Translations under genes and position numbers: made by a program | Notes under the pieces: generated by a model | Database searches by the model: none | What the model saw: the letters and a program-made list of their open reading frames with translations, nothing else | What the model was told of the DNA's origin: nothing | Shown: piece after piece, positions 17,555-52,355 of the stretch | Position numbering within the stretch: the stretch's first letter is position 1 | Layout: every line of letters starts with the position of its first letter | Assembly (NCBI GenBank): GCA_044344255.1 | Contig: JBIJDH010000025.1 | Location: 31,889 to 95,888 of the forward strand | Source: Myxococcota bacterium | GTDB lineage: Bacteria > Myxococcota_A > UBA796 > UBA2385 | Length of the DNA: 64,000 nt | Direction of reading: 5' to 3'

Positions 17555-17573
17555 CCCGCGGGCGGGTGCTATC

Positions 17574-34868: not shown

Positions 34869-34886
34869 GTCCGTCCTCGCGCTGAG

Positions 34887-35921: not shown

Positions 35922-36430
35922 CGCGAGAGCTCCCAGGCCACCGTGTACCCGCCGCCGGCGGCCGTGTCGGTGCCGACGGTGCCCCACTCGGGCGGCGGCG
36001 CGGCGGACTCGGACCGCAGCGTGACGTGATTGACGGTCCAATCGACGATGTCGTAGGTGTAGGCCCCGAGCAGCACGGTGAACTCCTCGCCGTCGGTCGC
36101 GTAGGCCTCGATGAAGTCGCTCTGCGGCCCGCTGTCGGTGGGGACCTCCCAGGGGCCGGTGGGCGGCGTGGGCACGAGGGCGCCGCCTTCCCAGGCGCAG
36201 CGCAGCATCACGTAGGCCTTGCTGTCCTTGTGAAACTCGATGGTGCCGACGTCGTCGATGAGGTCGGCCTCGCCGCCGGCGGGCCCCACCTCGAGTGAGA
36301 GGATGTCCCAATAGCCGAGGAGGACAGGGTCGCGCTTGCAGCCGATCAGCAGGGGCAGCGCGAGGAGCGCGGCGAGCGGGCGTGTTGCGGGACTCAGCAT
36401 GTCAGGACACAGCATGTCAGGAAACAGCAT
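35918..36430 (-). CDS. hypothetical lipoprotein
   Basis: Lipobox LPLLIGC. There are three alternative in-frame ATGs (36430, 36415, 36400) created by a 15-bp triplication. Translationally coupled on both sides. Confidence 0.6.
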   Translation of the reverse strand: MLFPDMLCPDMLSPATRPLAALLALPLLIGCKRDPVLLGYWDILSLEVGPAGGEADLIDDVGTIEFHKDSKAYVMLRCAWEGGALVPTPPTGPWEVPTDSGPQSDFIEAYATDGEEFTVLLGAYTYDIVDWTVNHVTLRSESAAPPPEWGTVGTDTAAGGGYTVAWELSR

Positions 36431-36440
36431 GTCAGGACTC
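36396..36440. repeat. 15-bp tandem repeat x3 spanning a stop/start junction
   Basis: Plus strand: agcatgtcaggaCAc / agcatgtcaggaAAc / agcatgtcaggaCTc at 36396-36410, 36411-36425 and 36426-36440. On the minus strand each unit reads CCTGACATGCT (TGA then ATG). Confidence 0.9.
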
Positions 36441-37787: not shown

Positions 37788-38188
37788 CCGGAGTCCCGGC
37801 TGCCCGAGGGCGAGGTGAGGTAGAGGCACATGTCGGAGACGGCGAGCCAGGCGTCGAGGTCGTCGCCGTACTCCTCGACCAGCGCGCAGGGGATGTTCCG
37901 CAGCGCCAGCGGGCAGGCGTAGACGTCTTGCGGCGCCACGAGGGCGGCGGTGTCCTCCCCGAGCGGCTCGACGGGGACCTCCTCGCAGGTGTAGTCCTCG
38001 AAGAAGCGCTCGTAGCGCGCCTCGGCGAGGTCGGTGTCGCCGGTGCACTCCTGAGTGCGGCCGGCGATGGCCGACCCCACCTCGAGGCAGAGCTGATCTT
38101 CAGGAAGCGACCGGATACAGCCGCCGGAGAGCAGCCCGGCGAGGAGGGCGGCGAGGCCCGAGGGGCCGGCGCGGCTCGGCGCGGTCAT
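37784..38188 (-). CDS. small Cys-rich lipoprotein
   Basis: Start at ATG 38188 (MTAPSRAGPSGLAALLAGLLSGGC) in track ORF 37784..38695. Seven further Cys residues. ATGA overlaps at 37784-37787 and 38185-38188. Confidence 0.6.
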   Translation of the reverse strand: MTAPSRAGPSGLAALLAGLLSGGCIRSLPEDQLCLEVGSAIAGRTQECTGDTDLAEARYERFFEDYTCEEVPVEPLGEDTAALVAPQDVYACPLALRNIPCALVEEYGDDLDAWLAVSDMCLYLTSPSGSRDSG

Positions 38189-38595
38189 GGGACCTCCTCG
38201 GTCCAAGGCTGTCCGTCGTTGTCGGGGACGCGGAACCAGCCGAGGAGCGCGCCAGCGGCGTCCCGATAGGCATAGACCGCCCCCGGGTTCGACGGCGCGG
38301 CGAAGCTGCTCCCCCCCTGGATGGTGCCGAGGCCCATCTCTTCGCAGGTCTCCGTGATCAGGCTGAGCTCCACCGTCACGCTGGCGAAGACGGTCAGCTC
38401 GACCGGCATCGCGCCGAGCAGGACCGTGCAGGGCAGCTCGCTCTCTCCGGTCAGGCCGTCGAGGGGGCCCCCGTTTCGGGTCTGCGCGACCGGGTAGTAC
38501 GAGGGGTAGCCGCAGCCGCTTGCCAGGATGCAGCCGAGGACGGCCGCCGGCCATGCAGGGGAACGACGGTGACCGGCGCGGAGGAGCGGGAGCAT
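38185..38595 (-). CDS. small lipoprotein, first gene of the envelope operon
   Basis: Start at ATG 38595 (MLPLLRAGHRRSPAWPAAVLGCILASGC) in track ORF 38185..38691. Confidence 0.6.
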   Translation of the reverse strand: MLPLLRAGHRRSPAWPAAVLGCILASGCGYPSYYPVAQTRNGGPLDGLTGESELPCTVLLGAMPVELTVFASVTVELSLITETCEEMGLGTIQGGSSFAAPSNPGAVYAYRDAAGALLGWFRVPDNDGQPWTEEVP

Positions 38596-38714
38596 GCCCT
38601 GGTTGTGCCCCACGGCGCGGGGAAGCGCAAGCGGCGTCGGAGCATGGCGGGGGACGGGGGCGGACGGGATAGGCGGAGGGGCGCCTCGCACACACCCGAA
38701 CCCCCCGGTCCCGC

Positions 38715-39527
38715 TTGCCCCAACAGACGGCCCCGGCGCCCCCCTCGCCGCCGGCTTCGGCGGAGGCCTCGCCTCGCCGCTGGCTGCGGGTGGGGCTGGC
38801 CTACCTCGCCCTCGTGGCCCTCACCGGGGCGGTCCTGCTGTGGCTCTCCCGGCCGCCGCTGCCGCCGCTGCCCCCTCAGCAGGTCCTGTTTATCGAGGTC
38901 GTGGGGGCGAGCTGGGCGGCGCTGGGGCCGCAGATCGAGGCCGGAGCCCTCCCGGCCCTCGGCCGGCTGGTGGCCGAGGGGGCGGTCGAGACCGCGCTCG
39001 AGCCCCTCGGCGGCGAAGATCGCCTGTCCCGCTCGGCGGCGCTCCGGGCGGGCCGTACGGCCGAGGGCGCGGTGGCGGGGCCGAGCCTGTGGGCGGTGGC
39101 GCGGGCGGCGGGGCTCACGGCCGAGGAGCTCGCAGCCAGGGAGCTCGCAGGGACGGGCATCCCCGCCGTCGACGTCCCCACCCCGCAGCTCCTCGGCCTC
39201 CGCCTCGACCCCGCCGCGGGAGAGGGCTGGCCGGCCCTCGACACGGCGCTCGGCGGCTGGCTCCTCCGCCCCCCGGCCGACACCACCCTCGTGCTGGTGG
39301 GGGACGCGGGCCCCGCCGCGCCGGGCCTGCTCATCCTCTGGGGCCCGGGGGTCAAGCCCGGTCACCTCGAGGGGTTGGAGGCTCAGGACGTCGCCCCCAC
39401 GATCGCCTGGCTCCTCGGCCTGCCCGTGGCCATCGACCTCCCCGGGCGGGTGGTCGACGACGCCTTCCGCGACGAATTCGCCGATCGCCGCGGGCTCTCG
39501 CTCGTCCCCTCCTACCTCACTCCCTGA
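38715..39527 (+). CDS. membrane-anchored degenerate alkaline-phosphatase/sulfatase-like protein
   Basis: TTG start (uncertain). TM is VGLAYLALVALTGAVLLWL. VLFIEVVGASWAAL sits where family members have the xxDxxR metal motif. C-terminal LEAQDVAPTIAWLLGLPVAIDLPGRVV matches the conserved sulfatase-family block. No nucleophile motif. Confidence 0.55.
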   Translation: MPQQTAPAPPSPPASAEASPRRWLRVGLAYLALVALTGAVLLWLSRPPLPPLPPQQVLFIEVVGASWAALGPQIEAGALPALGRLVAEGAVETALEPLGGEDRLSRSAALRAGRTAEGAVAGPSLWAVARAAGLTAEELAARELAGTGIPAVDVPTPQLLGLRLDPAAGEGWPALDTALGGWLLRPPADTTLVLVGDAGPAAPGLLILWGPGVKPGHLEGLEAQDVAPTIAWLLGLPVAIDLPGRVVDDAFRDEFADRRGLSLVPSYLTP

Positions 39528-39585
39528 GGTCCGTCGGGTCCGCCGCGCGTTCGACGGGGCTCCCGCCGTTGGGATAGGGTCGCGG

Positions 39586-41043
39586 ATGCGCGCCGCTCTT
39601 CCCCTTCGGTCGCCTGAGCCCCTCGGCCTCCCCGTTGCGCGGGCGACGAGCTCCCCGCGGGGGTTCGGCTTCGCCCTGGCGCTGATCGCCGGCCTCGGCG
39701 CCATGGCCTGCCACCGCCCGGTGGAGCGGTCGGTTCACCCCGAGAAGCCCGACGTGGTCTTGATCGTCGTCGATACCCTCCGCATGAGCGAGATGAATCA
39801 GTACGGCTACGCGCGGCCCACCGCCGTCGCCCTCGATCGGTTCGCCGCCGAGTCCACCCGCTTCACCCGGGCCTGGGCGCCTGCGCCCTGGACCCTCCCC
39901 AGCACCGCGACGGCCCTCTCCGGTCTCCTGCCGGCCTCCCACAAGGTGAGGCACCTGGGCGACGTGCTGCCGGACGAGGTCACCACCCTCGCGGAGCGCC
40001 TCCAGGCGGCGGGCTGGACCACCGGGGGCTTTTCGCACAACCACCATGTCTCCCCGCTGACCGGCTTCTCCCAGGGCTTTGAGACCTTTGAGGCCTATCA
40101 GGGCAGCGCCCTCGACGCCCCCTTCACCGGCGAGCTGGTGGACATGATGGAGGGCTGGCTCGATGAGAAGGTGGATGAGCGGCTCTTCCTCTACAGCCAC
40201 CCCCTGTCCTGCCATGGCCCCTATGAGGTGCCCTGGACCCGCCGGCGCACCCTGCTCGGCGAGGCCCCGAGCGACGCCTTCGTCTACGGCGAGGCCCCGA
40301 TGAAGCCCATCATGAATGGGCGGCTCAAGAGTCGGGAGCGGGTGAAGAAGCGGCACCTGCAGAGCCACCGTGACCAGTACGACACGGCCATTCGATACAC
40401 CTTGGACGAGGTGGGCCGGCTGCTCGAGGGGCTGCGGGAGTCCGGCGTCTATGACGACGCGCTGATCATCCTCACCGCAGACCACGGCGAGGAGCTCTAT
40501 GACCACCAGGGCTTCGGCCACGGGTACTCCCTCTACGACGAGGTGCTGCGGGTGCCCCTCTTCGTGAAGCTGCCGGGTCAGAAGGAGGGCGCGGTCTCCG
40601 ACGTGACCGCCAGCCTCGCCGACATCGTGCCCACCGTGCTCTCGCTCGTGGGCGAGCCCGTGCCCGAGGGGCTGCCGGGGCGCTCGCTCCTCCCCGCCCT
40701 CGCTGGCGCACCCGACGACCCCGACCGCGTCCTGCTCTTCGACGTCGATTGGCCGAACCGCTGCCAAGGGCGGGGTGTCCTGCGGGGCTCCTGGAAGCTC
40801 ATCACCCTCGACGCCTGCTACGACCAGCCCGCGGACGCTCGGATGTTGTTCAACCTCTCGGAGGACCCTGGTGAGCGCCGCGACCTCGCGAAGGACGCCA
40901 CCCTCCTCGAGGCGCAGCTCCGCGCCGAGCTCCTCCGCGCCGACGAGGAGGCGCGGGCGCTCGGCCTCGCCTTGCCGCCGCCGGCCAACGTCGCTGGCAG
41001 CATGAACACAGAGCTGCTGCGCATGCTCGGCTACGTGCAGTAG
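39586..41043 (+). CDS. sulfatase-family hydrolase/transferase, Thr-type nucleophile, secreted
   Basis: Start at ATG 39586 within track ORF 38569..41043; the upstream third is out of frame with gene 38715..39527. VVLIVVDTLRMSE, APAPWTLPSTATALSGLLP (Thr nucleophile), ILTADHGEELYDHQGFGHG and LADIVPTVLSLVGEP are present. It ends LRMLGYVQ. Confidence 0.85.
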   Translation: MRAALPLRSPEPLGLPVARATSSPRGFGFALALIAGLGAMACHRPVERSVHPEKPDVVLIVVDTLRMSEMNQYGYARPTAVALDRFAAESTRFTRAWAPAPWTLPSTATALSGLLPASHKVRHLGDVLPDEVTTLAERLQAAGWTTGGFSHNHHVSPLTGFSQGFETFEAYQGSALDAPFTGELVDMMEGWLDEKVDERLFLYSHPLSCHGPYEVPWTRRRTLLGEAPSDAFVYGEAPMKPIMNGRLKSRERVKKRHLQSHRDQYDTAIRYTLDEVGRLLEGLRESGVYDDALIILTADHGEELYDHQGFGHGYSLYDEVLRVPLFVKLPGQKEGAVSDVTASLADIVPTVLSLVGEPVPEGLPGRSLLPALAGAPDDPDRVLLFDVDWPNRCQGRGVLRGSWKLITLDACYDQPADARMLFNLSEDPGERRDLAKDATLLEAQLRAELLRADEEARALGLALPPPANVAGSMNTELLRMLGYVQ

Positions 41044-41097
41044 GGGCGGGGGCTACGCTGGCCCTGCGGGGCGGCCCCGTGCTACGTGCCCGCCGCA

Positions 41098-43245
41098 ATG
41101 TCCGAGCCCCTCGATCCGACCGCTGTCGCGCCTGCTCCTGCCTCGCTGGGAGGCGCGGCGCTCCCCGACGGCCTCCCCCTCCGGCGCAGCGTCGGCCTCG
41201 GCGTCGCCACGCTGGTGGTCCTGTTCGTCATCGACGCGATCGAGACGTCGGACACCGTGCGTCGGGCGGTCAATCGACTGAACGCTGGACAGACCGCAGA
41301 CGACGCCATGCTCGAGTCTGTGTCCTACTATGTGGTCGGCAACGCTGTCTCCTACCTGCTGATCGGCCTCGTGGCCGGCCTCGTGCTGCACTTCTGGCTG
41401 AGGCTGCTGCGCCCGGCGCGCCCCCTGCGCGCGGCGGTGATCGCGCTGCCCGTCGCGGTGCTGCTCGCGTATGGCCGACAGGCCATCCTGCACCCGGGCC
41501 TCCACGACTGGTTCCTGTTCCTCGACCTCTGGGCCTCCCACGTGCCGCCAGAGGCCATGCTGGCCCTGATGGTGCTGCCCGTCTGTGTCAGCCTCGTGGT
41601 CGGCTATCACCGCTCGGCCGGCCTCGGGGACTGGGGGCGGCGAGTGGCCCCCCTGCTCGCCCTCGCCCTCTCGATCGGCGCCCTCTGGCGGGTGTCTCCA
41701 GCGGACCCTGCGGTGAAGAACGACGGTCCGAACATCCTCGTCTTCAGCTTCGATGCGATGCGGACCGACCACATCCACCATTTTGGATATGAGCGGGACA
41801 TTACCCCCAACCTCGATCGTTTCCTGTCCGAGTCGACGGTCTGGGAGAACGCTTACACCCCGCTGGCCCGCACGCAGCCGGCCTGGACCGCGCTGCTCAC
41901 CGGCACGCTGCCGATCACCAATGAGGTGCGCGACCCCCTGCCCGAGCCCTCGAAGCTCGTGCCGAAGGTGCCGATGCTGCCTCAGGTCTTGAAGGAGCGT
42001 GGCTACCACACCGCCTTCCTGACCGACGACTCCCGCTTCAACTACATGGTCCCTGAGCATGGCTTCGACACCATCGTCCAGCCGCCGCCCCACATCTCCA
42101 ACTTCGCGATCTCGGGCTCCGAGCCGAGCTTCCGCGCCTTTTACGGACTGCTCGACAACCCGCTCGGCTGGTTCCTCGTCCCCGCGGTGCGGATGAACCA
42201 GGCCTTTGGCCGGAGCTACGAGAACAAGCGCTTCAACGAGGCCACCCTGCAGGCCATCGCCGACGCCTCGGCCCACGAGCGCTTCTTCCTGGCGATCCAC
42301 GACTGCAGCCTGCACTCGCCGGCGGATCGGTATTATCCGTACACGCTCCTCTTCGATCAGGCGTCCTATCAGGGCAAGAATCGATTTCGGTACGCCTCGC
42401 TCGGCTCGGCCTCGCTCTTCGATGACATGAACGAGGAGGAGGAGCGCGCCGCCGCCCAGCAGAACATCAACCTCTACGACGCCGGCATGGTGATGATCGA
42501 CGAGACCTTCGCCGGCCTCCGCGCCCAGCTCGAGGACAGCGGTCTCTGGGAGAATTCGATCGTCGTCTTGATGAGCGACCACGGCGAGGACTTCTACGAG
42601 CCCGATCTCCGCTACTCCTTCGTCGGTCCGAACCACGGCTTCCATCCGTGGGGGCGGGCTCAGCACAACGTGGTCCTGGGCATCCACTGGCCGGCCTCGA
42701 TGGCCGCCGCCCACCCGCCCGGCCGCGAGACGCACCTCACCAGCCTGATCGACGTCGTGCCCACCCTCGCCGAGGCGCTGGGCATCCCCTGGAAGGGCGA
42801 CGGGCGCTCGCTCTTCGACCGGAGCGAGCGCGTGCTCTACGTGGAGACGGGCCTGTCCGAGAAGAGCTACTGGAGCAAGGAGCACAAGCGGTACCCCTTC
42901 AAGCACAACTCGGCCTACTTCACGGTGGAGGAGGGCTCCGGGCGGGTCTTCGGGCGCACCGAGTTCGCCTCCGCGGTCATCCGCAACAAGGACCGCTTCG
43001 TGATGGACGAGCGGTACAAGCTCATCTGGTACCCGAACGACTCCGGCACCAGCGTGGAGCTGTTCGACTGGGTGGCCGATCCGAACGACCGCCGAAACGT
43101 CGCCGCGCGCTACCCGGGCCAGGTCGCCAAGCTCTGGGCGGCGCTCCAGCCCCGCCTCGCCCAGGACGGCATCATCGCCCCCGAGCTGCTCCCTTTCGTT
43201 CGGCCGACCACGCCAACTCCGGCGGCCGCGCCCGCCCAGCCCTGA
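41098..43245 (+). CDS. polytopic membrane sulfatase-family protein (LtaS/OpgB/EptA-like architecture), Thr-type nucleophile
   Basis: About 5 N-terminal TM helices (LGVATLVVLFVIDAI, VSYLLIGLVAGLVLHFWL, AAVIALPVAVLLAY, MLALMVLPVCVSLVVGY, VAPLLALALSIGALW). The extracytoplasmic domain follows: ILVFSFDAMRTDH, TPLARTQPAWTALLTG, VLMSDHGEDF, LIDVVPTLAEALGIP. GTG 41086 is an alternative start. Confidence 0.85.
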   Translation: MSEPLDPTAVAPAPASLGGAALPDGLPLRRSVGLGVATLVVLFVIDAIETSDTVRRAVNRLNAGQTADDAMLESVSYYVVGNAVSYLLIGLVAGLVLHFWLRLLRPARPLRAAVIALPVAVLLAYGRQAILHPGLHDWFLFLDLWASHVPPEAMLALMVLPVCVSLVVGYHRSAGLGDWGRRVAPLLALALSIGALWRVSPADPAVKNDGPNILVFSFDAMRTDHIHHFGYERDITPNLDRFLSESTVWENAYTPLARTQPAWTALLTGTLPITNEVRDPLPEPSKLVPKVPMLPQVLKERGYHTAFLTDDSRFNYMVPEHGFDTIVQPPPHISNFAISGSEPSFRAFYGLLDNPLGWFLVPAVRMNQAFGRSYENKRFNEATLQAIADASAHERFFLAIHDCSLHSPADRYYPYTLLFDQASYQGKNRFRYASLGSASLFDDMNEEEERAAAQQNINLYDAGMVMIDETFAGLRAQLEDSGLWENSIVVLMSDHGEDFYEPDLRYSFVGPNHGFHPWGRAQHNVVLGIHWPASMAAAHPPGRETHLTSLIDVVPTLAEALGIPWKGDGRSLFDRSERVLYVETGLSEKSYWSKEHKRYPFKHNSAYFTVEEGSGRVFGRTEFASAVIRNKDRFVMDERYKLIWYPNDSGTSVELFDWVADPNDRRNVAARYPGQVAKLWAALQPRLAQDGIIAPELLPFVRPTTPTPAAAPAQP

Positions 43246-43290
43246 GGCGGCGCGCGCGAGCGGGAGGGTGAGGCCAAAGGCCAGCCGCGC

Positions 43291-44097
43291 TCAGCGGGCG
43301 GCGAGGGCCTGCTCGTCCTGCTGATCGAGGGCGGTGAGCAGCGAGCTGCGGACGCGGTGGGAGAGCTCCTCGACGTCGTCCTTGGTGAGGCCCGCGCAGT
43401 CGATGGGGTCGCCGAAGATCATCTCGACCGTCCCGCGCTTGATCCGCCAGCCGAGGTTCGGGTTTGTGCAGTCCCAGAGGCCCTTCATCGCGAGGGGAAG
43501 GATCTGGCCCTGCGTCTCGATGGCCATGTGGAAGGGGCCCTTCTTGAAGGGGCCGAGCTGGCCGTTGCGGGTGCGGGTGCCCTCGGGCATGACGCCGATG
43601 TTGACGCCGGAGCCCAGGCGCTCGCGCGCGAGGCGATAGGACTCCTTCGCCGAGCTCAGGTTGGCCCGGTCGATCGGGATGTTGCCCCAGGCGTACAAGA
43701 ACCAGTTGTAGACCGGGATCTTGAAGTTCTCCTTCTTCTCGATGGCGACCGAGTATCGGGAGAGCACCGCCTGGGCGATGAAGGGATCGAGGAAGCTGAC
43801 GTGGTTGCAGTACACGAGGTAGCCGCGGGAGGGATCGACCTTGTGACCGTTGACCACCTTGAGCCGCATCCCGAGGAGGCCGAGCCCGAGCTTCATCATG
43901 AAGTTCGTGTAGGGCAGGAAGCGCTGGGGGTTCATCAAGAAGGCCAGCACCACCACCGAGAGCAAGGCGGGGAAGAACACGCTCCAGCCGACGACGAAGC
44001 GGCTGAGGTCATCCACCGTCTCGATCACGCCGTATCGGCGGCGGAGGCCGGTTTGGGTGTTGGCGGGGACCAGCGCTGTGCCCGTGTCGGTTCCCAT
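43291..44097 (-). CDS. plsC: 1-acyl-sn-glycerol-3-phosphate acyltransferase (AGPAT/LPLAT family)
   Basis: Start at ATG 44097 (MGTDTGTALV) in track ORF 43291..44343. N-terminal TM. Block I is YCNHVSFLD (H-x4-D). Block III is VMPEGTRTRNG. Lies 91 bp downstream of the PfaC-like gene on the same strand. Confidence 0.9.
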   Translation of the reverse strand: MGTDTGTALVPANTQTGLRRRYGVIETVDDLSRFVVGWSVFFPALLSVVVLAFLMNPQRFLPYTNFMMKLGLGLLGMRLKVVNGHKVDPSRGYLVYCNHVSFLDPFIAQAVLSRYSVAIEKKENFKIPVYNWFLYAWGNIPIDRANLSSAKESYRLARERLGSGVNIGVMPEGTRTRNGQLGPFKKGPFHMAIETQGQILPLAMKGLWDCTNPNLGWRIKRGTVEMIFGDPIDCAGLTKDDVEELSHRVRSSLLTALDQQDEQALAAR

Positions 44098-44188
44098 CTG
44101 CTCGCTCCTGACGGGGCCACTCGGAGGATGGAGGGCCTCCGGGGGTGTCCCCTTAGAGCTTAGCGGGCAGACGGGCGAGTTCCACGCC

Positions 44189-47100
44189 TCAGCCAAAACG
44201 TGGAAGAGTGGTGACCGAACTGTGACCGGGCCCGAGCGGACCGGGGGCTTGGTAGGCGAGGCCGAGCTCGCTGGCCTCGTAGATGCGCTTGCCGTCGATC
44301 CACAAGGAGGCCCCCCCGCGCACCCAGCCGCGCTCGGCGTCACCGCCGAAGGTGAGGCCGGTCGCGGTGATCACCACGTCGCCGTCGCCGGGCCGCACCT
44401 GCCCCCGGTACCGCCACGAGAGGCTGCCGGGCACGAGCGAATAGCCGCCGGCCGGGGCACCGCAGAGGCCGAAGTGCAGGCGGTGGGCGGCCTCGAGGGC
44501 CTCGAGCATCGCCTCCACGCCGAGCGAGCCCGGCTGGACCGGGTCTTGGAAGAAGTGAGCCTTGAAGTACCAGGACAGTGGGTCAACGGCCTTCTCGGCT
44601 CGCAGCTCCCCCGCCTCGGGCCACCAGCCGGTCACCCGATCGAGCAGGCGGAGCCGGCCGTCGCGGCGGAGCGCCCCCTCGCCGACGGGCGCCGAGGCCG
44701 CGGAGAGGCGCGCGCGCTCGGCGGGAGGGCAGGGGAGGCCCGCCTGGTTGGCCAGGGCCGCGGCCGGGAAGAAGCCGAAGACCGTGCTCATCGAGCCCAC
44801 CGGGTGCGGGCCCACCCGGAGGCTGACCGTGAAGGCGACGAGGATCATCCCGGCGCTGCGGCTCAGCCGTTCGAGGCCGAGCTCGGCCGTGAGGGGGCCC
44901 TGGCCGGGGCGCAGCGTCCGGGAGGGCTCTCCGACGAGGGTGAGCTGCCCGTCGAGGTTTCGGAAGAAGAGCTCCTGCTCGGCGCCCAGGGTGCAGCCGA
45001 CGAAGGTGGCCAGCCAACCGCAGGGCTGGAGGGCCGCCTCGAGCAGGACGGCGAAGGGCATGGCCCCGGAGTCGTCGAGGTACCAGGCGCCTTGGGGTAT
45101 GTCGTACTCGGTGACCGCTCGGATCCCAGCCTGCATCGAGCCGAACTCCCCGTGGATCTCGGTGACGCGGCTGATGAAGTGGTAGGGCGGCCCGGGCAGG
45201 CGGGGCGCACGCTCCGGGCCGTCGAATCGGGCATAACCATGGCCGAAGGCCGCGGAGGGGCGGCCGATGGCGCTGGCGATCAGCGCGTCCTGGTCAAAGC
45301 GGTGGCCGTTCGGTAGGGTCGCGGCCCGCGGGTCGGGGGCGGTGAGGAGGAGCTCGGGCTGGGCGCCGAGCGGCCAGTCGGGCACGAGAGAGAGGCCGAA
45401 GCGCTTGGCGTGAAAGGCCTTGAGCCCGTCTACGGTGCAGAGCAGGTCGGCCCGCACGGTGGGCAGGGGGCCGCTGATGAGCTCCTCGATGAAGACCTCG
45501 TAGACGAGCCGCTTCGAGCTGGGGGTCACCTGTCCGCGACAGCGCATCGGCACGGTCTCGCCGGTCACCGGCTGGAAGCGCCAGCCGTCTCGCTCGACGG
45601 TGAAGCCGAGGGCCGCCAGCGTGAAGGAGAGGGCCTGGACAGAGCCCTCGAACATGAGCGTCCCCGGCATGCAGGGGTCGCCCTTGAAGTGACCGGCGAA
45701 GTACCAGTCGTCGGGATGGATCTCCGTCTCGGCGCGGAGGTAGCCTCGGCGCCAGGGCCCGCCCGTGGGCTCGAAGGCGGTCACGGCCTCGAGGAAGAGC
45801 ATCTGCCCGCCCTGGATGTTCGGCGTACGGACGTGGGCCTTACAGGGGGCCCAGGCCGGCCCGAAACACTCCCACGGCCGCCCCTCCGCGAAGGCCCGCA
45901 GGGCCTCGGGGCCGTAACGAGCGGGGGCGCCGGTGATCGCGGGCGGGTCGAGGCGGGCGTCCGGCGCGGCGACCGCGGTGGCGGGGTCCCAGAGGATGCC
46001 GGCGGAGGCCGCGAGCTCCTCGGTGGTGAAGAAGCCGGCCTGTCCACCGCGCACCCGGATGCGGGGGACACCGTTCACGGTGCAGTCGTAGTGAAAGAAG
46101 AACAGTCGCACGTCGCCCTGCCGCGCGTGCCCATCGACATGGATCTCGTAGCGGAGCGTCTCTCCGGGGGAGGGGAGGTCTCCGAGGATCGTCATATCGC
46201 AGCCGAGCAGGCGATAGACCCGCTCCCCTCTATTTAGCAGATCGCAGCCGAGGTAGGAGATGAGCAGCAGGTCAGCCTGCCCGGACTCGATGAGGATGCC
46301 GGTGGGCATGCGGCCTTGGTGGAGGTACCAGGAGTCTGCGCGCACGTCCGTCTCTGTCCAGACCACCCCGCGGCCCATCGAGGCCGGCTCGGCGACGAGA
46401 TCGGTGACCCGATCGGCGAGAAGGAGGGGAGGCTCGGGCATCCGGCACTGGCGAGGGTAAGCGTCCTGCTCGGCGAAGCGGGGGCCGAAGACGGTGGAGA
46501 TCTGCCCCCCTGCGTGCACCGCGAGGGCGGCGCGGTCCATCGTGAAGGCCGCCCCGCGCTCTCCCGTCGGGGCCACCGGCGGAGGGACCGGCAGCGCCGC
46601 AGGGGCCTGCTCCTCCGCGACGCCCATCGCGGCCAGGAGCCGCGCCTGGCCCCGGGCCTGCTGCTCGAGGAACTGGCGGTGGAGCGCCGACTGACCGCTC
46701 AGGTAGTCGAGGTGCACGCGGTGCACCCGCTCGAGCATCTCCACCGCACCGGCGAGGAGGGGCGCGACCGGGGCGGCCTCCGGTTCGGCGAAGGTCGGCG
46801 CTTGCGCGGCGGGGGCGGCCTCCGGCTCGGCGAGGTCGACTCCCTCCAGGAGGGGAGGGAGGCGGGGCGCGGGGGGCATCGCCGCCGCTCCCGTGGGGGG
46901 AGGAGCCCAGGCGGGGAGGGGCCGCTCGGCGGGCTCGGCCGCGGTCGGGGCCGGGTAGCGCGGGGCGGTCGGGTGGGCGGGGTAGGCGCGGGTGGGGCCG
47001 GGCAAAACGGCGGGCCGGGGGCTGAGCAGCGTGAGGAGCCGCTCCCACGACACCTCGACCCCGGCGGCGAGCAGCGCCCCGGCGGCCTCGACGAGGGCCT

Positions 47101-50100
47101 CGACAGGGTGGGCCTTGCGGTCGAGGCTGAGGGCGAGGTGGGGCTGGTCGCCGAGCAGCTCGTCGATCCACCGGCTGCAGGAGCCGCCCGGGCCGAGCTC
47201 GACGAAGACGCGGACCCCGTCCTGCCAGGCCTGGCGCATCGAGGCCCGCAGGTCGACCGGGCCCGTGGCCTGGGCCCAGAGCTGCTCGATGGCGTCGAGG
47301 CTGTGCGGATCGTAGGGAGCGGGGCGGGCGCCGCCGTAGACCCGGGGGCCGACCGCCTGGGGTTCGGCCTCGGCGGCCCAGGCGTGGACCCGACGCCAGT
47401 CGGCCTCAGCGCCCTTCGCCTCACCGACATGCGCCACGACGGGGTAGTCGAGGTTGTTGCAGCGGCTGCGGTCGAAGCGCGCCGCCACGCGGCGGAGGGC
47501 TGCGGCCTCCCCGGCCACGACCACGTCCTGGTCAGTGTTGTAGACGGTGATGCGGGCGCGAGCCCCCTCGGGTGCGAGCGCGGCCTCCACTTCGGCCACC
47601 GGGGCCCGGAGGTTCCAGACCGCCCAGTCCACCGAGGAGAGGCCCCAGGCCTCGGCCACCGCTCGACAGGCGCCGCCGAGCTGCTCGGTGAACAGGTGGG
47701 ACCGCTCCGCCGCCGCGAGGCTCGGCCCCCAGTCGGCGGGCTGGCGGGCACAGATCAAGGCCGCGGTCTCGCCCGAGGAGTAGCCGAGCAGGGCGTCCGG
47801 CTCGAGGCCGAGGGCGCGCTGGGCGAGCGCGGTCCACATCGCCGAGAGCGCGAGGCTGCCGGTGAGCTTCTGGCGGGTGTCGAGCCCGTCCAGGCCCCAG
47901 CCCTCGGCGAGGACCGCGGCCCACGGCGCCTCGCCGCTCGCCCCGGAGAGCTCGGCGAGGGCAGGGGCGTCTTGCAGCAGGGCTCGGCCCATGTTCGGGT
48001 AGGCGGCGGCGGCCCCGGAGTAGACGAAGGCGAGCGAGCCGCCGAGGGGGGAGGCCGAGACCGACACGCCGGGCCCCCCCGGCCGCCCGAGGGGCAGGGC
48101 TTGACGGGCGTGCGCGAGGCGGCGCGCGAAGCTGGGGCCATCGGCCGCGGCGATCACGATCCGGGCGGGGCCCTCGCCGCCGGGGGGGCCGGCGAGGCGC
48201 TCGATGGCCTGCTCGACGGTGTCCCCGGCCCAGCGCCCCAGGATGGGGGCGGGGCGGGTGCCGTGGACGGCGCCGGGCAGGGCGCGGAGGCTCACCCGGC
48301 CGGGGCGGGCGTCTGTGGGCGGCGCGTCCACCCCGGCCCGTCGCTCCAGCCCGAGGGGCCAGGGCGCCCCGCCCGGAAGGCGGCGGTGGTGCAAGCAGAG
48401 GGCGGCGCTGGCCACGTCGAAGAGTGCGGCGGCGGCGTGCGGCCGGCCGAGGCGGGAGGCGGTGTGGAGGGTCACCTCCCCGGCGGGGGAGGCCTCCTCC
48501 GGCCCTGCGAGGCGGAGGGCGGCGTAAGGAGCGGCGAGGGCGGGATCGTCGCGGCGGCGGAGCAGGAGGGCCACCGCGCCGTCCGAGGCCTCCGACGAAG
48601 GCAGGCCCATGGCCTCGAGGGCGAGCTTGTGGAGCGGCTCGTCGGAGAGGTCGACCGCGGCGACGAGGGCGGCGTCGATCTCCCCCGCCTCGAGCGCGCG
48701 GAGGGCCAGCTCCAGGGCCCGCAGCCCGGAGCCCTCCTCGGCGGAGACCGTGAAGCTGGGGCCGGCGAGGTCGTGCTGGAAGGAGAGGCGGTTCGCCACG
48801 AGGTTCGGCATCGTGCCGAGCACCCCAGCGGCGGGCAGCGGCGGGGCGAAGCTGTCCTGGGCCTGCTGGATGGCCTCGGGCTCGGCCCCCCAGGCGCGGG
48901 CGAGCGAGGGGAGGCGCCAGCGGGCCCCCCAGCGGGCGACCTCGGGATCGGCCCCCATGCCCACATAGACGCCGGTGCGCTCGCGGGGGAGCCGACCCAC
49001 TTCGGCGAGGGCCTCGGCGCCAGCCGCCAAGACGAGGGTGTGCTGGGCGAGGGCGAGCTCGAGGTCGCGCGGGGGGAAGCGTGTGTCGTGGAGGGGGAGG
49101 GCGACCGTGCGGAGCCCGGGGAGGGGGCCGGGCGAGGCCGCGAAGAGCCGCTCGGTGAGGGCGGCGCGGTCGGCCCCGAAGCTGCCCGCGGCGCCCAGAC
49201 CGACGACGCAGGCCTCGGCCCGCGCCGCCCCGCCTCGGCCCTCGCCGCCTCGCCCCGCGTGCTCGGGGGTGGGGCCTTCGGACCGGTCGCCCGACAGGCC
49301 AGGGGCCTCGAGGAGGAGGTGGGCGTTGTTGCCCCCGAAGCCGAAGGCCGAGATCGCGGCGCGCCGGGGGCCATCCCAGGCCTCGGCGGCGTGGAGGAGG
49401 CGGAAGGGGCCGTCGGCGAGGGCGGGGTTCGGGGCCTCGGCGTGCAGCGTCGGGGGGCGGATCCCGGCCCGCAGGGCCTCCGTGACCTTGATCACCGCGG
49501 CGATGCCGGCGACCGTCACGAGGTGGCCAAGGTTCCCCTTGAGCGAGCCGATCGGCACGTCGTGGAGCCCGGCGTAGAGGCTGCCCATGCTCCGGAGCTC
49601 GGTGCCGTCCCCCACGGGGGTGCCGGTGGCGTGGCACTCGACCAGCCCGATGTCGGCCGGGCTGAGCCCCGCCGCCGCGTAGGCCGCCTGGAGCGCGCGC
49701 CGCTGGCCCTCCTCGGAGGGGGAGAGCATCCCGCCGCCGCGCCCGTCGTTGGAGAGGCCCACCCCGCGGATGACCGCGTGGATGCGGTCCCCGTCGCGGA
49801 GCGCGTCGGCCTCGCGCTTGAGCACGAGCGCCGCGCAGCCCTCGGCCGGCACGAGCCCGTCGGCCTCCTTGTGGAAGGGGCGGCTCCGGCCGCTGCGGGA
49901 GAGGGCCTGGAGGGCCGCGAAGCCCATGTGGATGAAGAGGTCGTCGGCGCGGTTGACCGCCGCGGCGATCATCACGTCGGCTTCGTGGTCTTGGAGGCGC
50001 TCGGCCGCGAGCTTGATCGCGTAGAGCCCGCTCGCGCAGGCGGCGTCGATCGCGGTGCCGCCCTGGCCGAGGCCGAGGGCCTGCGCGGCGAGGCGGGCGG

Positions 50101-50629
50101 GCAGGCCGGACATGAAGCGGTTGCGGCGGTCGACCGGCGTGAGGCCAGCCCGGCGGAGCTCGACCTCGGGCAGGCCGGCCGCGCGGAGCCACTCCCACTC
50201 GGCCATCCGTGCCATCCCGGTGGTCGGGAAGGACAGGTTGCCGAGCACGAGGCCGGTCCGCGGCCCACCCGGGGTGCCCGCGTCCTCGAGCGCCTGACGA
50301 GAGACCTGGAGCACCCAGTGGAACAGAGGGTCGAGCCCGTCGAAGGTCTCGGCGGGCAGCGCGTAGCCGTGGGCTTCGAAGGCGAAGTCGGTGACGTAGC
50401 CGCCCCGATCGCTCCAGGTGTGATCGGGGCTCGGCTTGGTCGAGAGCACCTGGGCGCGGGGCAGCCCCCAGCGGCCCGCAGGCGCCCGCCCGAGGAGATC
50501 TTCGCCCGCCACCACCGCGCGCCAGAGCGCCTCGGGGCTCGCGGCCCCGGGTAGCAGGCAGGCCTGTCCGACGATGGCGATGGGCGCGAAGGGGCGCGCG
50601 AGCGGGAGGGGGTCAGCGGGGCGGAGCAT
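44189..50629 (-). CDS. pfaC: PUFA-synthase-type polyketide/fatty-acid megasynthase subunit, PfaC/Pfa3-like (KS-CLF-AT-DH'-DH-DH'-DH)
   Basis: Start at ATG 50629 (MLRPADPLPLARPFAPIAIVGQ) in track ORF 44189..50911; 2146 aa. KS: IDAACASG (Cys198), ECHATGT, KGNLGH. CLF: FTVSAEEGSG (no Cys). AT: LLGYSSGE (Ser951). Two FabA-type DH: DWYFAGHFKGDPCMPG and SWYFKAHFFQDPVQPG, each preceded by a hotdog pseudo-domain. Confidence 0.9.
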   Translation of the reverse strand: MLRPADPLPLARPFAPIAIVGQACLLPGAASPEALWRAVVAGEDLLGRAPAGRWGLPRAQVLSTKPSPDHTWSDRGGYVTDFAFEAHGYALPAETFDGLDPLFHWVLQVSRQALEDAGTPGGPRTGLVLGNLSFPTTGMARMAEWEWLRAAGLPEVELRRAGLTPVDRRNRFMSGLPARLAAQALGLGQGGTAIDAACASGLYAIKLAAERLQDHEADVMIAAAVNRADDLFIHMGFAALQALSRSGRSRPFHKEADGLVPAEGCAALVLKREADALRDGDRIHAVIRGVGLSNDGRGGGMLSPSEEGQRRALQAAYAAAGLSPADIGLVECHATGTPVGDGTELRSMGSLYAGLHDVPIGSLKGNLGHLVTVAGIAAVIKVTEALRAGIRPPTLHAEAPNPALADGPFRLLHAAEAWDGPRRAAISAFGFGGNNAHLLLEAPGLSGDRSEGPTPEHAGRGGEGRGGAARAEACVVGLGAAGSFGADRAALTERLFAASPGPLPGLRTVALPLHDTRFPPRDLELALAQHTLVLAAGAEALAEVGRLPRERTGVYVGMGADPEVARWGARWRLPSLARAWGAEPEAIQQAQDSFAPPLPAAGVLGTMPNLVANRLSFQHDLAGPSFTVSAEEGSGLRALELALRALEAGEIDAALVAAVDLSDEPLHKLALEAMGLPSSEASDGAVALLLRRRDDPALAAPYAALRLAGPEEASPAGEVTLHTASRLGRPHAAAALFDVASAALCLHHRRLPGGAPWPLGLERRAGVDAPPTDARPGRVSLRALPGAVHGTRPAPILGRWAGDTVEQAIERLAGPPGGEGPARIVIAAADGPSFARRLAHARQALPLGRPGGPGVSVSASPLGGSLAFVYSGAAAAYPNMGRALLQDAPALAELSGASGEAPWAAVLAEGWGLDGLDTRQKLTGSLALSAMWTALAQRALGLEPDALLGYSSGETAALICARQPADWGPSLAAAERSHLFTEQLGGACRAVAEAWGLSSVDWAVWNLRAPVAEVEAALAPEGARARITVYNTDQDVVVAGEAAALRRVAARFDRSRCNNLDYPVVAHVGEAKGAEADWRRVHAWAAEAEPQAVGPRVYGGARPAPYDPHSLDAIEQLWAQATGPVDLRASMRQAWQDGVRVFVELGPGGSCSRWIDELLGDQPHLALSLDRKAHPVEALVEAAGALLAAGVEVSWERLLTLLSPRPAVLPGPTRAYPAHPTAPRYPAPTAAEPAERPLPAWAPPPTGAAAMPPAPRLPPLLEGVDLAEPEAAPAAQAPTFAEPEAAPVAPLLAGAVEMLERVHRVHLDYLSGQSALHRQFLEQQARGQARLLAAMGVAEEQAPAALPVPPPVAPTGERGAAFTMDRAALAVHAGGQISTVFGPRFAEQDAYPRQCRMPEPPLLLADRVTDLVAEPASMGRGVVWTETDVRADSWYLHQGRMPTGILIESGQADLLLISYLGCDLLNRGERVYRLLGCDMTILGDLPSPGETLRYEIHVDGHARQGDVRLFFFHYDCTVNGVPRIRVRGGQAGFFTTEELAASAGILWDPATAVAAPDARLDPPAITGAPARYGPEALRAFAEGRPWECFGPAWAPCKAHVRTPNIQGGQMLFLEAVTAFEPTGGPWRRGYLRAETEIHPDDWYFAGHFKGDPCMPGTLMFEGSVQALSFTLAALGFTVERDGWRFQPVTGETVPMRCRGQVTPSSKRLVYEVFIEELISGPLPTVRADLLCTVDGLKAFHAKRFGLSLVPDWPLGAQPELLLTAPDPRAATLPNGHRFDQDALIASAIGRPSAAFGHGYARFDGPERAPRLPGPPYHFISRVTEIHGEFGSMQAGIRAVTEYDIPQGAWYLDDSGAMPFAVLLEAALQPCGWLATFVGCTLGAEQELFFRNLDGQLTLVGEPSRTLRPGQGPLTAELGLERLSRSAGMILVAFTVSLRVGPHPVGSMSTVFGFFPAAALANQAGLPCPPAERARLSAASAPVGEGALRRDGRLRLLDRVTGWWPEAGELRAEKAVDPLSWYFKAHFFQDPVQPGSLGVEAMLEALEAAHRLHFGLCGAPAGGYSLVPGSLSWRYRGQVRPGDGDVVITATGLTFGGDAERGWVRGGASLWIDGKRIYEASELGLAYQAPGPLGPGHSSVTTLPRFG

Positions 50630-50657
50630 GGGCCGCCGCCTATCCCGAGCCGGCCGG

Positions 50658-50712
50658 GGTCGTCTCGGCCGGAGGTCTCGGCCGGAGGTCTCGGCAGAAG
50701 GTCTCGGCGGGG
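50658..50712. repeat. 13-bp tandem repeat x4 (GGTCTCGGCnGrr) in the divergent intergenic region upstream of the PfaC-like gene
   Basis: ggtcgtctcggccgga (50658-50673, with a 3-nt insertion), ggtctcggccgga (50674-50686), ggtctcggcagaa (50687-50699), ggtctcggcgggg (50700-50712). Lies between ATG 50629 (minus) and GTG 50775 (plus). Confidence 0.8.
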
Positions 50713-50774
50713 GAGGGCAGCGCCGGGCCGCCGCGGGCGCTACGCTGTCACCGAGGTGCCGGTTGCCCCGCCTG

Positions 50775-52355
50775 GTGATCGAGTCGTCGTCCTGTGGCCC
50801 CGGTCTCGGCGCCCCGCTCACCCGCTGGGCTCGCCTCGGCGGCGCCCTCGCCGTGGGGCTCGTGGGCTGCGGCGAGGCAGGCCCCGACTGTGTGCTCCCC
50901 GCATCGACCACCGCCGACGACAGCGCGGAGGGCGAGGGCGCTGAAGACGGCTGGATCTCCGCTGGCCCGGTCTCTCCCTGCGCCGATCCCGCGCCGACCG
51001 CCGCTTACGCCGACCGCGCGGCCGAGTGGGGGCTCGTCGGCACCGTCGATCCCGACACCCTCCACCTCGACGGCGGCGGGGCCGCCGTGGCCGACTTCGA
51101 CGGCGACGGCGCTGTTGACCTCGTGCTCGCCAACCGCGACCGCGACCCGCTGCTCCTCCGATGGACCGGCGCCGGCTTCGCCGCCGAGCCGCTCGCCGGG
51201 GGCGCGAACGGCACCTCCACCGCGGCGATGCCCCTCGACGGGGATGGCGACGGCGACCTCGACCTCGTGGTGACCGCCACCGCCGAGCTGCTCTGGTACC
51301 AGAACGAGGGGGGCACCCTCGTGCTCGATCCGGGTCGAGTGAGCGGCCTGCCCCCCGACGCCTTGCCCGGCCTCGCCCCCGCCGATCCAGACGGCGACGG
51401 CGACGTCGACCTCCTGGTCGCGGTGTATCAGGCGACCAGCACCCTCCGCGGAGATCGCCTCCTCGTCAACGACGGCGAGGGCCGCTACACCGCCGCCGAG
51501 CTCTTTGCCGGTGGTGAGGGCGGGGCCACCTTCCAGCCCCTCTGGCTCGACGCCGACGGAGACGGCGACAGCGACGCCTACTTCGTCAATGACCGCGGCC
51601 CGACCTCCGGTGGCAACGCCCTGTTCCACAACGAGGGGGGCGCCTTCGTCGACCGCAGCGTCGGCTGCGGCTGTGCGCCGACGGTGGGCGGCATGGGGGG
51701 CGACGTGGGGGACGTCAACGGGGACGGCGCGGTCGACCTCTTCCTCGCCAACTCGGACGCCTGCGCCCTGCTCCTCAACATGGGGGAGGGGACCTTCTTC
51801 GACGCCGCCGTCGCCCGCGGCGCTGCCCAGTCGGTCACCCCCGGCGACCCCGACATGGTCTGGGGCGCCGCGCTCTTCGATCGCGACAATGACGGTGACC
51901 TCGACCTCTTCGCCGCCCACGGAGACCTCTACGACCCCGCCGACCCCGCCTCCACCCTCATCGACGTGCCCGACGCCCTCCTCGATCAAGGACAGGACGG
52001 CACCTTCCACGACGTCGCCCCCGCCCTCGGCCTCGACGCCCTCGACTCGAGCCGCGCCGTCGTGCCCTGGGACTGGAACGAAGATGGTCTGCTCGACCTG
52101 CTGGTCACCGGCATCCACACCGACCCTCACCTCTGGGTGAGCGAGGCCTGCACGGCCAACGCCTGGGTCGAGCTCGACCTCGTGGGGCGGCGGTCGAACC
52201 GCTACGGTCTCGGCGCGAAGGTGGAGCTCACCGCGGGGGGCCGCACCCTCACCGCCTGGTCGCGCGCCTCGGCCGGCGTCTTCGCCGGCCGCGACCCGCG
52301 CATCCACCTCGGCCTCGGCGACGCGACGCGCATCGAGCACCTCCGCGTCACCTAG
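50775..52355 (+). CDS. FG-GAP/VCBS repeat + ASPIC/UnbV (CRTAC1-like) lipoprotein
   Basis: 3' part of track ORF 50436..52355. There is no in-frame ATG; I chose GTG 50775 (TTG 50763 also possible). Lipobox LAVGLVGC. Repeats: ADFDGDGAVDLVLAN, PLDGDGDGDLDLVV, ADPDGDGDVDLLV, LDADGDGDSDAYF, GDVNGDGAVDLFLAN, FDRDNDGDLDLF. C-terminal RRSNRYGLGAKVELTAGGRTL...GLGDA is the ASPIC/UnbV motif. Confidence 0.8.
   Translation: MIESSSCGPGLGAPLTRWARLGGALAVGLVGCGEAGPDCVLPASTTADDSAEGEGAEDGWISAGPVSPCADPAPTAAYADRAAEWGLVGTVDPDTLHLDGGGAAVADFDGDGAVDLVLANRDRDPLLLRWTGAGFAAEPLAGGANGTSTAAMPLDGDGDGDLDLVVTATAELLWYQNEGGTLVLDPGRVSGLPPDALPGLAPADPDGDGDVDLLVAVYQATSTLRGDRLLVNDGEGRYTAAELFAGGEGGATFQPLWLDADGDGDSDAYFVNDRGPTSGGNALFHNEGGAFVDRSVGCGCAPTVGGMGGDVGDVNGDGAVDLFLANSDACALLLNMGEGTFFDAAVARGAAQSVTPGDPDMVWGAALFDRDNDGDLDLFAAHGDLYDPADPASTLIDVPDALLDQGQDGTFHDVAPALGLDALDSSRAVVPWDWNEDGLLDLLVTGIHTDPHLWVSEACTANAWVELDLVGRRSNRYGLGAKVELTAGGRTLTAWSRASAGVFAGRDPRIHLGLGDATRIEHLRVT

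Follow-up and report, generated by a model that had tools for sequence, protein, structure and literature searches.

The DNA analysed here, a window of 64,000 nucleotides whose coordinates are used throughout, carries a gene of the Pfa3/PfaC type that stands without the pfa1 and pfa2 genes that adjoin it in related loci and is followed directly by a gene for a small acyltransferase. The locus raises the question of how a single subunit of a PUFA-synthase-like system might act in this organism, and whether the acyltransferase is, as an earlier note on this DNA had it, the AGPAT domain of the megasynthase split off as a separate gene.

The open reading frame (44189..50629, reverse strand) comprises 2146 codons counted from ATG, and an identical 2146-aa product is annotated in the MAG record GCA_041443045.1, which was traced through the ASPIC, acyltransferase and sulfatase neighbours, a protein-database search with the Pfa3-like sequence not having returned the product itself. 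Scans with Pfam and NCBIfam models recover the N- and C-terminal ketoacyl-synt domains, a second ketoacyl-synt stretch, a weak AT and two FabA stretches, giving the order KS-CLF-AT-(Pro/Ala linker)-DH'-DH-DH'-DH. The ketosynthase (residues 16 through 444; 49298..50584, reverse strand; PF00109 and PF02801) has the motifs of an active enzyme, DAACASG (C198), ECHATGT (H333) and KGNLGH (H369). In the chain-length-factor domain (residues ~473 through 760; 48350..49213, reverse strand), which corresponds to the second ketoacyl-synt stretch, SAEEGSG replaces the active-site Cys motif, and the same column is Cys-less in an alignment of 120 homologues. The AT domain (residues ~864 through 1168; 47126..48040, reverse strand) was assigned with TIGR03131 (MdcH-type, 51 bits) and the PfaB family model (39 bits), Acyl_transf_1 scoring below its cut-off at 17.6 bits; it contains GYSSGE (S951, kept in 114 of the 120 homologues) and H1067 (kept in all 120). 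This domain is conserved across the Pfa3 family.

Two dehydratase cores complete the protein. The first, FabA-like dehydratase/isomerase core (residues 1608 through 1741; 45407..45808, reverse strand; PF07977 and TIGR01749) has the motif GHFKGDPCMPG; across the alignment H1647 is invariant and the acidic residue at E1661 is conserved as Glu or Asp. The second, FabA/FabZ-like core (residues 1995 through 2083; 44381..44647, reverse strand; PF07977 and FabZ models) has AHFFQDPVQPG, with H2025 invariant and E2039 present in 115/120 homologues. The protein ends ~60 residues past the second core, and no part of it matches a profile of the fused AGPAT domain. Every motif that had been claimed for the KS, CLF, AT and both DHs is found at its residue, and the catalytic residues match those of the 120 homologues; the description of an intact Pfa3/PfaC-type subunit, with a Cys-His-His KS, a Cys-less CLF and two FabA-like DHs bearing His/acidic pairs, is thus upheld. 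The best match of known structure is 6riw_A (residues 17 through 664, E = 4.5e-110), which extends through the KS into the CLF and which we take to be a PUFA-synthase KS-CLF didomain representing marine PfaC. Marine PfaC is not known to contain an internal AT, this activity being supplied by a separate PfaB, and is encoded within pfaABCD operons.

Homologues of Pfa3 align over 98 to 99% of the query at 46 to 51% identity, including a collinear, full-length protein from Sorangium, and the N-terminal 257 residues, within the KS, are 59 to 63% identical to Pfa3 N termini vs. ~30% to the KS of Pfa2. The Pfa3 proteins of Aetherobacter, Minicystis and Sorangium share the KS-CLF-AT-DH-DH order, the FabA-like DHs and the catalytic residues; the Sorangium protein P0106 and the synthetic Pfa3 construct P0119 are 48 to 54% identical to the protein described here. 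Myxobacterial Pfa3 differs in being ~2900 aa long, with a C-terminal AGPAT domain and in some cases a DH4, and in being encoded directly after pfa1-pfa2 (PMC8436480, PMC6731297), whereas the present protein ends after its second FabA-like DH, lacks an AGPAT domain and has no pfa1 or pfa2 nearby. The top-scoring relatives (49 to 51% identity) are unfused Pfa3-like proteins of ~2070 to 2140 aa (e.g., P0001-P0003 and P0099) with the same length and domain set, from uncultured Pseudomonadota and Myxococcota, actinomycetes and Hyphomonadaceae. Their genes differ from this one in their surroundings: pfa1 and pfa2 lie upstream in every case, in some loci together with a FabH-like gene or a PPTase, and an acyltransferase of the type seen here adjoins none of them.

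The acyltransferase gene (43291..44097, reverse strand; 268 aa) follows after a spacer of exactly 91 bp (44098..44188), as noted earlier. The two genes are probably co-transcribed, since they lie on the same strand, 91 bp apart, and no terminator-like or promoter-like site was found in the spacer. The product is predicted to be a stand-alone PlsC-type lysophospholipid/1-acylglycerol-3-phosphate acyltransferase: it matches PF01553 (E = 4e-29, 101 bits), scores 102.2 bits with TIGR00530, just under the cut-off of 102.95, and matches 5kym_A, named as a 1-acyl-sn-glycerol-3-phosphate acyltransferase, with E = 5e-18. With PlsC (5kym) it shares NHxxxxD, here NHVSFLD (HX4D), as well as PEGTR and a hydrophobic N-terminal segment. 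It also gives a weak match to the model for the Aas acyl-ACP-phospholipid acyltransferase. Pfam scans of the flanking ORFs bear out the neighbours that had been described: a divergent ASPIC/FG-GAP lipoprotein gene (50763-52355, forward strand), separated from the Pfa3 start by a divergent intergenic region of 133 bp (50630..50762), and a convergent sulfatase gene (41098-43245, forward strand). The ASPIC gene start, TTG at 50763, was set by exact match to a 530-aa product. Nothing connects these neighbours (sulfatases, ASPIC) with lipid synthesis.

The absence of an ACP, KR, ER or PPTase gene from the window, also claimed earlier, withstood three tests. Pfam scans of all large ORFs revealed none of them; the 64 kb, translated in six frames, gave no tblastn match to Pfa1 or Pfa2 from relatives, nor any pfa2 remnant upstream; and a Pfa2-ACP profile and E. 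coli AcpP, searched against ORFs of at least 40 aa, gave nothing better than E ~1, while the same ACP search matched 58 ORFs in related loci as a control. The gene lists for the 9 kb to the left and the 6 kb to the right of the window, where the contig ends, are likewise free of ACP, KR, ER and PPTase genes, so that the stretch covered spans about -9.3 to +69.8 kb relative to the window (~80 kb of contig). A search of JGI metagenomes with a GC-biased pattern for the ACP motif G[IV]DSIK[RQK][VI]EI gave at least 120 matches, and among the 82 listed none came from the eight metagenomes that contain this organism. The separation of pfa3 from pfa1 and pfa2 is both real and exceptional: pfa2 abuts pfa3 in each of ~60 bacterial relatives with upstream sequence, pfa1 also lies upstream of pfa2 wherever the flank reaches far enough, and no relative has the two unlinked. 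The Pfa3 family is thus known only within a three-protein system, and the literature searched contains no account of a bacterial pfaC/pfa3 that is orphan or unlinked. Published descriptions (PMC8436480, PMC6731297) bear out the organisation given earlier for myxobacterial systems, pfa1-pfa2-pfa3 with the AGPAT as part of Pfa3, and place the PPTase elsewhere; since PPTase genes are unlinked there too (PMC8436480), a missing PPTase, one of the absences listed in the earlier note, carries no weight.

We consider it somewhat probable (roughly 0.55) that the product is a working Pfa3/PfaC-type subunit, part of an iterative PUFA-synthase-like ("secondary lipid") synthase whose Pfa1 and Pfa2 partners are unlinked. 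From what is known of the family, the KS-CLF pair would elongate acyl chains and the two FabA-like dehydratase/isomerase domains would set cis double bonds. Lacking a carrier, a ketoreductase and an enoyl reductase, the protein must act on chains held by an ACP in trans. This ACP would most likely come from a Pfa2-type protein (KS-AT-ACPn-KR-DH) that, like the Pfa1-type ER accompanying it, is encoded at an unlinked locus; such partners, assumed rather than found on the ~80 kb of contig, would parallel the PPTase that is already unlinked in described myxobacteria. The PlsC-type acyltransferase next to it, acquired separately from the AGPAT domain that forms part of Pfa3 in other lineages, may transfer the product to a lysophospholipid. 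As a precedent, the PUFA synthases of thraustochytrids have subunits whose genes are unlinked; they differ in being eukaryotic and in having all three subunits in the genome. Standing against partners in trans are their absence from the ~80 kb of contig covered, the lack of any unlinked pair among the ~60 bacterial relatives and the length of the protein's branch, which could mean a changed role.

The alternative that survives best, though we regard it as unlikely, is that the protein is a true orphan: a fused FabB/FabD/FabA-like module working on AcpP-bound intermediates, with the cell's FabG and FabI performing the reductions, so that cis double bonds are introduced and retained and the PlsC-type neighbour moves acyl-ACP to lysophosphatidate. 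The lack of a dedicated carrier or reductase within ~80 kb fits this reading, as does purifying selection despite separation from the usual partners: between two strains 99% identical, dN/dS is 0.21 over 1584 codons (51 synonymous and 30 nonsynonymous changes) and 0.07 in the first DH region. Precedent comes from KS and FabA-like DH domains dissected out of thraustochytrid PUFA synthases, whose complementation of the E. coli mutants fabB(Ts) and fabA(Ts) shows that they can use type II acyl-ACPs (PMC6599236, PMC9667614); the ordinary stand-alone PlsC type of the acyltransferase, with its weak Aas-model match, is also consistent with it. However, no natural example is known, the relatives examined are all linked to pfa1/pfa2, and the absence of Pfa2 holds for ~80 kb of contig only. 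The still fuller scenario, in which the organism is without any Pfa2 or Pfa1 and the Pfa3-like protein has been repurposed for the anaerobic synthesis of unsaturated acyl-ACPs with AcpP, FabG and FabI, the PlsC-type neighbour passing them into phospholipid, is doubtful; if true, it would amount to a naturally occurring cross between type I PUFA-synthase parts and a type II FAS.

Divergence of the protein can be read either way. In a neighbor-joining (NJ) tree it is the most divergent of 121 sequences, with a terminal branch of 0.40 (median, 0.12), which favours the true orphan and could reflect a changed role rather than a deep lineage alone. Against this, the ValRS of the same organism is also very divergent (next best match, 69% identity), and the long Pfa3 branch may simply reflect lineage depth. 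The named ValRS matches, at 58 to 61% identity, are scattered over Haliangium, Myxococcales, Bryobacteraceae, Azospirillaceae and Acidimicrobiia; for this reason we withhold a firm taxonomic placement, but the source is a deep uncultured lineage. Among GTDB species representatives, which do not include this genome, the best relatives are 36 to 59% identical. The NJ sisters, P0038 and P0099, were rejected as true kin, being probably long-branch neighbours; the P0099 locus is a canonical PPTase-pfa1-pfa2-pfa3 cluster.

It is improbable that the gene is a functionless remnant, recently stranded when a rearrangement severed pfa3 from a pfa1-pfa2 pair since lost, with the gene not yet decayed and the acyltransferase an unrelated housekeeping neighbour. 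Such a history would suit an arrangement confined to one population, an acyltransferase type otherwise unassociated with pfa genes, and neighbouring sulfatase and ASPIC genes foreign to lipid synthesis. Yet the reading frame, 6.4 kb long in a genome of 72% GC, is unbroken, no catalytic residue has been lost, tblastn detects no pfa2 fragments upstream, and the dN/dS values given above, low overall and lower still in the first DH region, show a gene under purifying selection rather than a relic in decay.

The acyltransferase itself does not derive from Pfa3, as far as its relationships can tell. BLASTP against the 120 Pfa3 homologues gave nothing better than E ~1, and the protein scores 3 bits with the fused-AGPAT profile, with which true fused or split copies score 68 to 460 bits. 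Its nearest relatives are stand-alone PlsC-like proteins of 235 to 255 aa (~40% identity) in non-pfa contexts. One relative sits in a desaturase/CMAS cluster. On sequence grounds the protein is related to the Pfa3-fused AGPAT at the family level only, belonging to a different PF01553 subfamily; since its nearest relatives stand alone and it has no match to the Pfa3 AGPAT, it was acquired independently and is no fission product. The proposal that this is the split-off, formerly C-terminal AGPAT of Pfa3 is therefore very improbable and contradicted by the BLASTP and profile scores, even though the gene occupies the place, just downstream and on the same strand, that a fused domain would take, and three other loci (L031, L040 and L071) do have a fused-type AGPAT as an ORF of its own. 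Nor is a fused acyltransferase the rule, being present in 25 and lacking in 39 of the 64 evaluable GTDB loci. No acyltransferase of the present type was found beside other pfa loci, and since its adjacency to Pfa3 is confined to one population, conservation lends no support to a functional link.

An assembly artefact, in which part of a Pfa3 gene became fused to unrelated sequence in a chimeric contig and a neighbouring pfa1-pfa2 pair was thereby lost from view, is just as hard to credit: short-read contigs from several samples do break at the same bases within the Pfa3-like gene, and bases 48945-49014 are spanned by long contigs only, but the junction of the Pfa3 N terminus with the ASPIC gene recurs at 100% identity in six independent contigs (Logan and JGI samples), that of the Pfa3 C terminus with the acyltransferase and sulfatase genes in four other independent contigs, the N-terminal 257 residues are of Pfa3 rather than Pfa2 type, and two distinct long contigs bear these genes (101,647 and 116,476 bp; gene table inspected for the former). 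Because the junctions recur across independent metagenome assemblies, the arrangement is not an artefact.

An AGPAT domain is integrated in the Pfa3 of terrestrial myxobacterial systems, and the fused acyltransferase in 25/64 relatives indicates that the Pfa3 family often couples to phospholipid acylation (PMC6731297). That a PlsC-type acyltransferase was recruited independently next to a Pfa3 lacking the fused domain hints that this coupling of PUFA-type synthases arose more than once. PUFA-type synthases are treated as obligate three-protein machines with contiguous genes, a description that all ~60 relatives examined fit. A Pfa3 that is conserved and under selection, yet encoded away from the proteins that provide carrier and reductase, can be read in two ways. 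Either bacteria can encode and regulate the subunits independently of one another, in which case cluster-based genome-mining tools would miss or mis-score such systems, or a PfaC-type module works with the carrier of a type II FAS, which would be a new way of making unsaturated lipids and a part of use in engineering.

The Pfa3/PfaC-type gene (window 44189-50629, minus strand) is an ORF of 2146 codons, counted from the ATG, in a window of ~72% G+C. All motifs quoted in an earlier note, written from the sequence alone, were found in the translated ORF with the residue numbers stated there. Pfam and NCBIfam define two ketoacyl-synt stretches, the first with N and C domains (residues 16-397) and the second being the CLF, together with two FabA stretches; the AT is matched only weakly, with 51 bits for the MdcH-type model, 39 bits for the PfaB family, and 17.6 bits in Pfam, where this is under the cut-off. 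The top solved-structure match is 6riw_A (residues 17-664, E 4.5e-110), which we take to be the KS-CLF didomain of a PUFA synthase. Comparison with 120 homologues shows the family consensus at the catalytic positions of the KS (C198/H333/H369), the AT (S951/H1067), and both DH domains (H1647/E1661 and H2025/E2039).

In the window, Pfam scans of all large ORFs detected no ACP, KR, NMO-type ER, or PPTase. With Pfa1 and Pfa2 from the nearest relatives as tblastn queries, the only window matches were the KS- and AT-coding portions of pfa3 itself. Neither a profile of 95 Pfa2 ACP domains (positive control: 58 ORFs matched in related loci) nor E. coli AcpP matched any window ORF of at least 40 aa better than E ~1. 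Exact matches of neighboring proteins assign the window to a 101,647-bp contig of MAG GCA_041443045.1 and JGI metagenome 3300059473. Its gene lists show no pfa genes in the 9 kb before the window's left edge (nuo genes, DHODH, PFOR) or the ~6 kb from its right edge to the contig end (hypothetical gene, GT4, DUF1858, radical-SAM/hemerythrin protein, aminotransferase). These searches uphold the reported lack of partner genes, and the description of Pfa3 as an orphan is borne out for about 80 kb. The missing PPTase, previously listed as a sign of the orphan state, carries no weight, since the PPTase is also unlinked in the described myxobacterial systems; their organization, with AGPAT fused to Pfa3 and pfa1 and pfa2 adjacent, had been described correctly in the note (PMC8436480, PMC6731297).

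The orphan state is exceptional within the family. The top-scoring database relatives of Pfa3 (2070-2090 aa) are only 49-51% identical and are located in FabH-like/pfa1/pfa2/pfa3 clusters. A GTDB scan returned 80 loci with 36-59% identity to Pfa3; pfa2 directly adjoins pfa3 in every locus with upstream sequence, and pfa1 precedes pfa2 wherever the flank is long enough. The database homologue P0099 belongs to a PPTase-pfa1-pfa2-pfa3 cluster; for a second, P0072, the gene that stops 3 nt ahead of pfa3 is cut (818 aa) and is probably likewise pfa2. Whereas the pfa3 of the window is separate from pfa2, this was the case in 0 of about 60 relatives examined, and in the literature searched no bacterial pfaC/pfa3 was described as unlinked. 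Three lipid genes (MFS-cNMP-patatin protein, CDP-alcohol phosphatidyltransferase, weak PF01553 acyltransferase; locus L102, 16407-21479) converge on the 3' end of the canonical P0099 cluster, and a patatin/cNMP gene lies near P0072 (L228).

Because it has no carrier and neither reductase, the Pfa3 protein cannot function alone. The best-supported reading (probability about 0.55) is that it is a functional subunit relying on Pfa2 and Pfa1 from genes at other sites. A more novel but less likely reading has it cooperate with type II FAS; this is biochemically plausible, as KS and FabA-like DH domains dissected from PUFA synthases complement fabB(Ts) and fabA(Ts) of E. coli, respectively (PMC6599236, PMC9667614). 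A stranded remnant, left behind without function, is unlikely given the intact catalytic residues and the substitution pattern: in one strain pair (window versus a 99%-identical strain; 1584 codons), 51 of 81 substitutions are synonymous and 30 non-synonymous, with an overall dN/dS of 0.21 and a value of 0.07 for the first DH region. The Pfa3 gene is under purifying selection, not decaying.

The junctions on both sides of the gene are real. Identical 2146-aa and 268-aa products are called in MAG GCA_041443045.1 / JGI metagenome 3300059473; the junction between the Pfa3 N terminus and the divergent ASPIC gene recurs at 100% nucleotide identity in six independent contigs (Logan SRR27425442 and SRR27428891, and four JGI metagenomes), and the Pfa3 C terminus, acyltransferase, and sulfatase occur together in four others (98.4-99.1% identity). 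The N-terminal 257 residues are of Pfa3 type (59-63% identity to Pfa3 N termini, ~30% to Pfa2 KS), which excludes a KS-mediated Pfa2/Pfa3 chimera; with both junctions recurring as well, an assembly artefact is very improbable. Within the gene (48944-49857), the ends of short-read contigs coincide to the base across samples: 48944 is the first base of three Logan contigs and 49857 the last base of two, JGI contigs terminate at 49080 and 49015, and bases 48945-49014 are spanned by long contigs only. These shared break points suggest that a segment of the KS/CLF region is repeated or varies between strains. Public metagenomes contain at least two populations of the source organism, 98.4-99.1% and 100% identical to the window (33294-48944 aligned with contigs L085-L088; 49015-59854 with L096-L101).

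The source is a deep uncultured lineage, possibly of Myxococcota. The next best match of the window ValRS has 69% identity, and named matches (58-61%) include Haliangium, Myxococcales, Bryobacteraceae, Azospirillaceae, and Acidimicrobiia. Pfa3 is the most divergent of 121 aligned sequences (mean distance 0.73 versus a median of 0.57; terminal branch 0.40 versus 0.12). Four sulfatase genes in 64 kb and a JGI-named formylglycine-generating enzyme, the latter without a Pfam match in this analysis (together 676-2163, 2233-3795, about 39750-41040, 41098-43245, and 61432-62952), suggest a sulfated-polymer-degrading lifestyle. The ASPIC/FG-GAP lipoprotein gene (50763-52355, plus strand; lipobox LVGC), divergent from Pfa3, encodes a C-terminal domain that looks truncated, as the match to the 68-position UnbV_ASPIC profile ends at position 49. 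The gene at 17289-19892 (plus strand) encodes a large protein containing eight putative metal-binding repeats of the MopE type; locus L004 has a similar MopE-repeat protein of 1804 aa close to its pfa cluster.

The neighboring 268-aa acyltransferase (43291-44097, minus strand; PF01553, NHVSFLD and PEGTR motifs) starts 91 bp past the Pfa3 stop and matches the solved acyltransferase 5kym_A (E 5e-18). Among 64 evaluable GTDB loci, Pfa3 has a fused AGPAT in 25, is unfused with no flank acyltransferase detected in 37, and is accompanied by a separate fused-type ORF in 2. Separate fused-type ORFs in L031 (20005-21102), L040 (4997-6385, minus, opposite strand), and L071 (18711-21179; AGPAT and DH4 together in the ORF list) may be true fissions or frameshift/assembly effects. 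For the window, the claim that the AGPAT was split off from Pfa3 is rejected and gene fission is highly improbable: the acyltransferase scores 3 bits on the fused-AGPAT profile (genuine copies, 68-460 bits), BLASTP against the 120 Pfa3 homologues gave nothing better than E ~1, and its nearest relatives are stand-alone proteins (235-255 aa, ~40% identity). Two of these come after an MFS transporter gene. Another, P0126 (39% identical), is clustered with three FA_desaturase genes, two CMAS-type methyltransferase genes, a Lipid_desat gene, and a 4HBT thioesterase gene (L091, 3847-13340), in what looks like a lipid-tailoring island. Sequence comparison thus indicates that the window acyltransferase was gained independently of the Pfa3-fused AGPAT. 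If Pfa3 is a functional subunit, it would act with Pfa2 and Pfa1 supplied from another locus, and the co-oriented PlsC-type enzyme might off-load the product onto a lysophospholipid.
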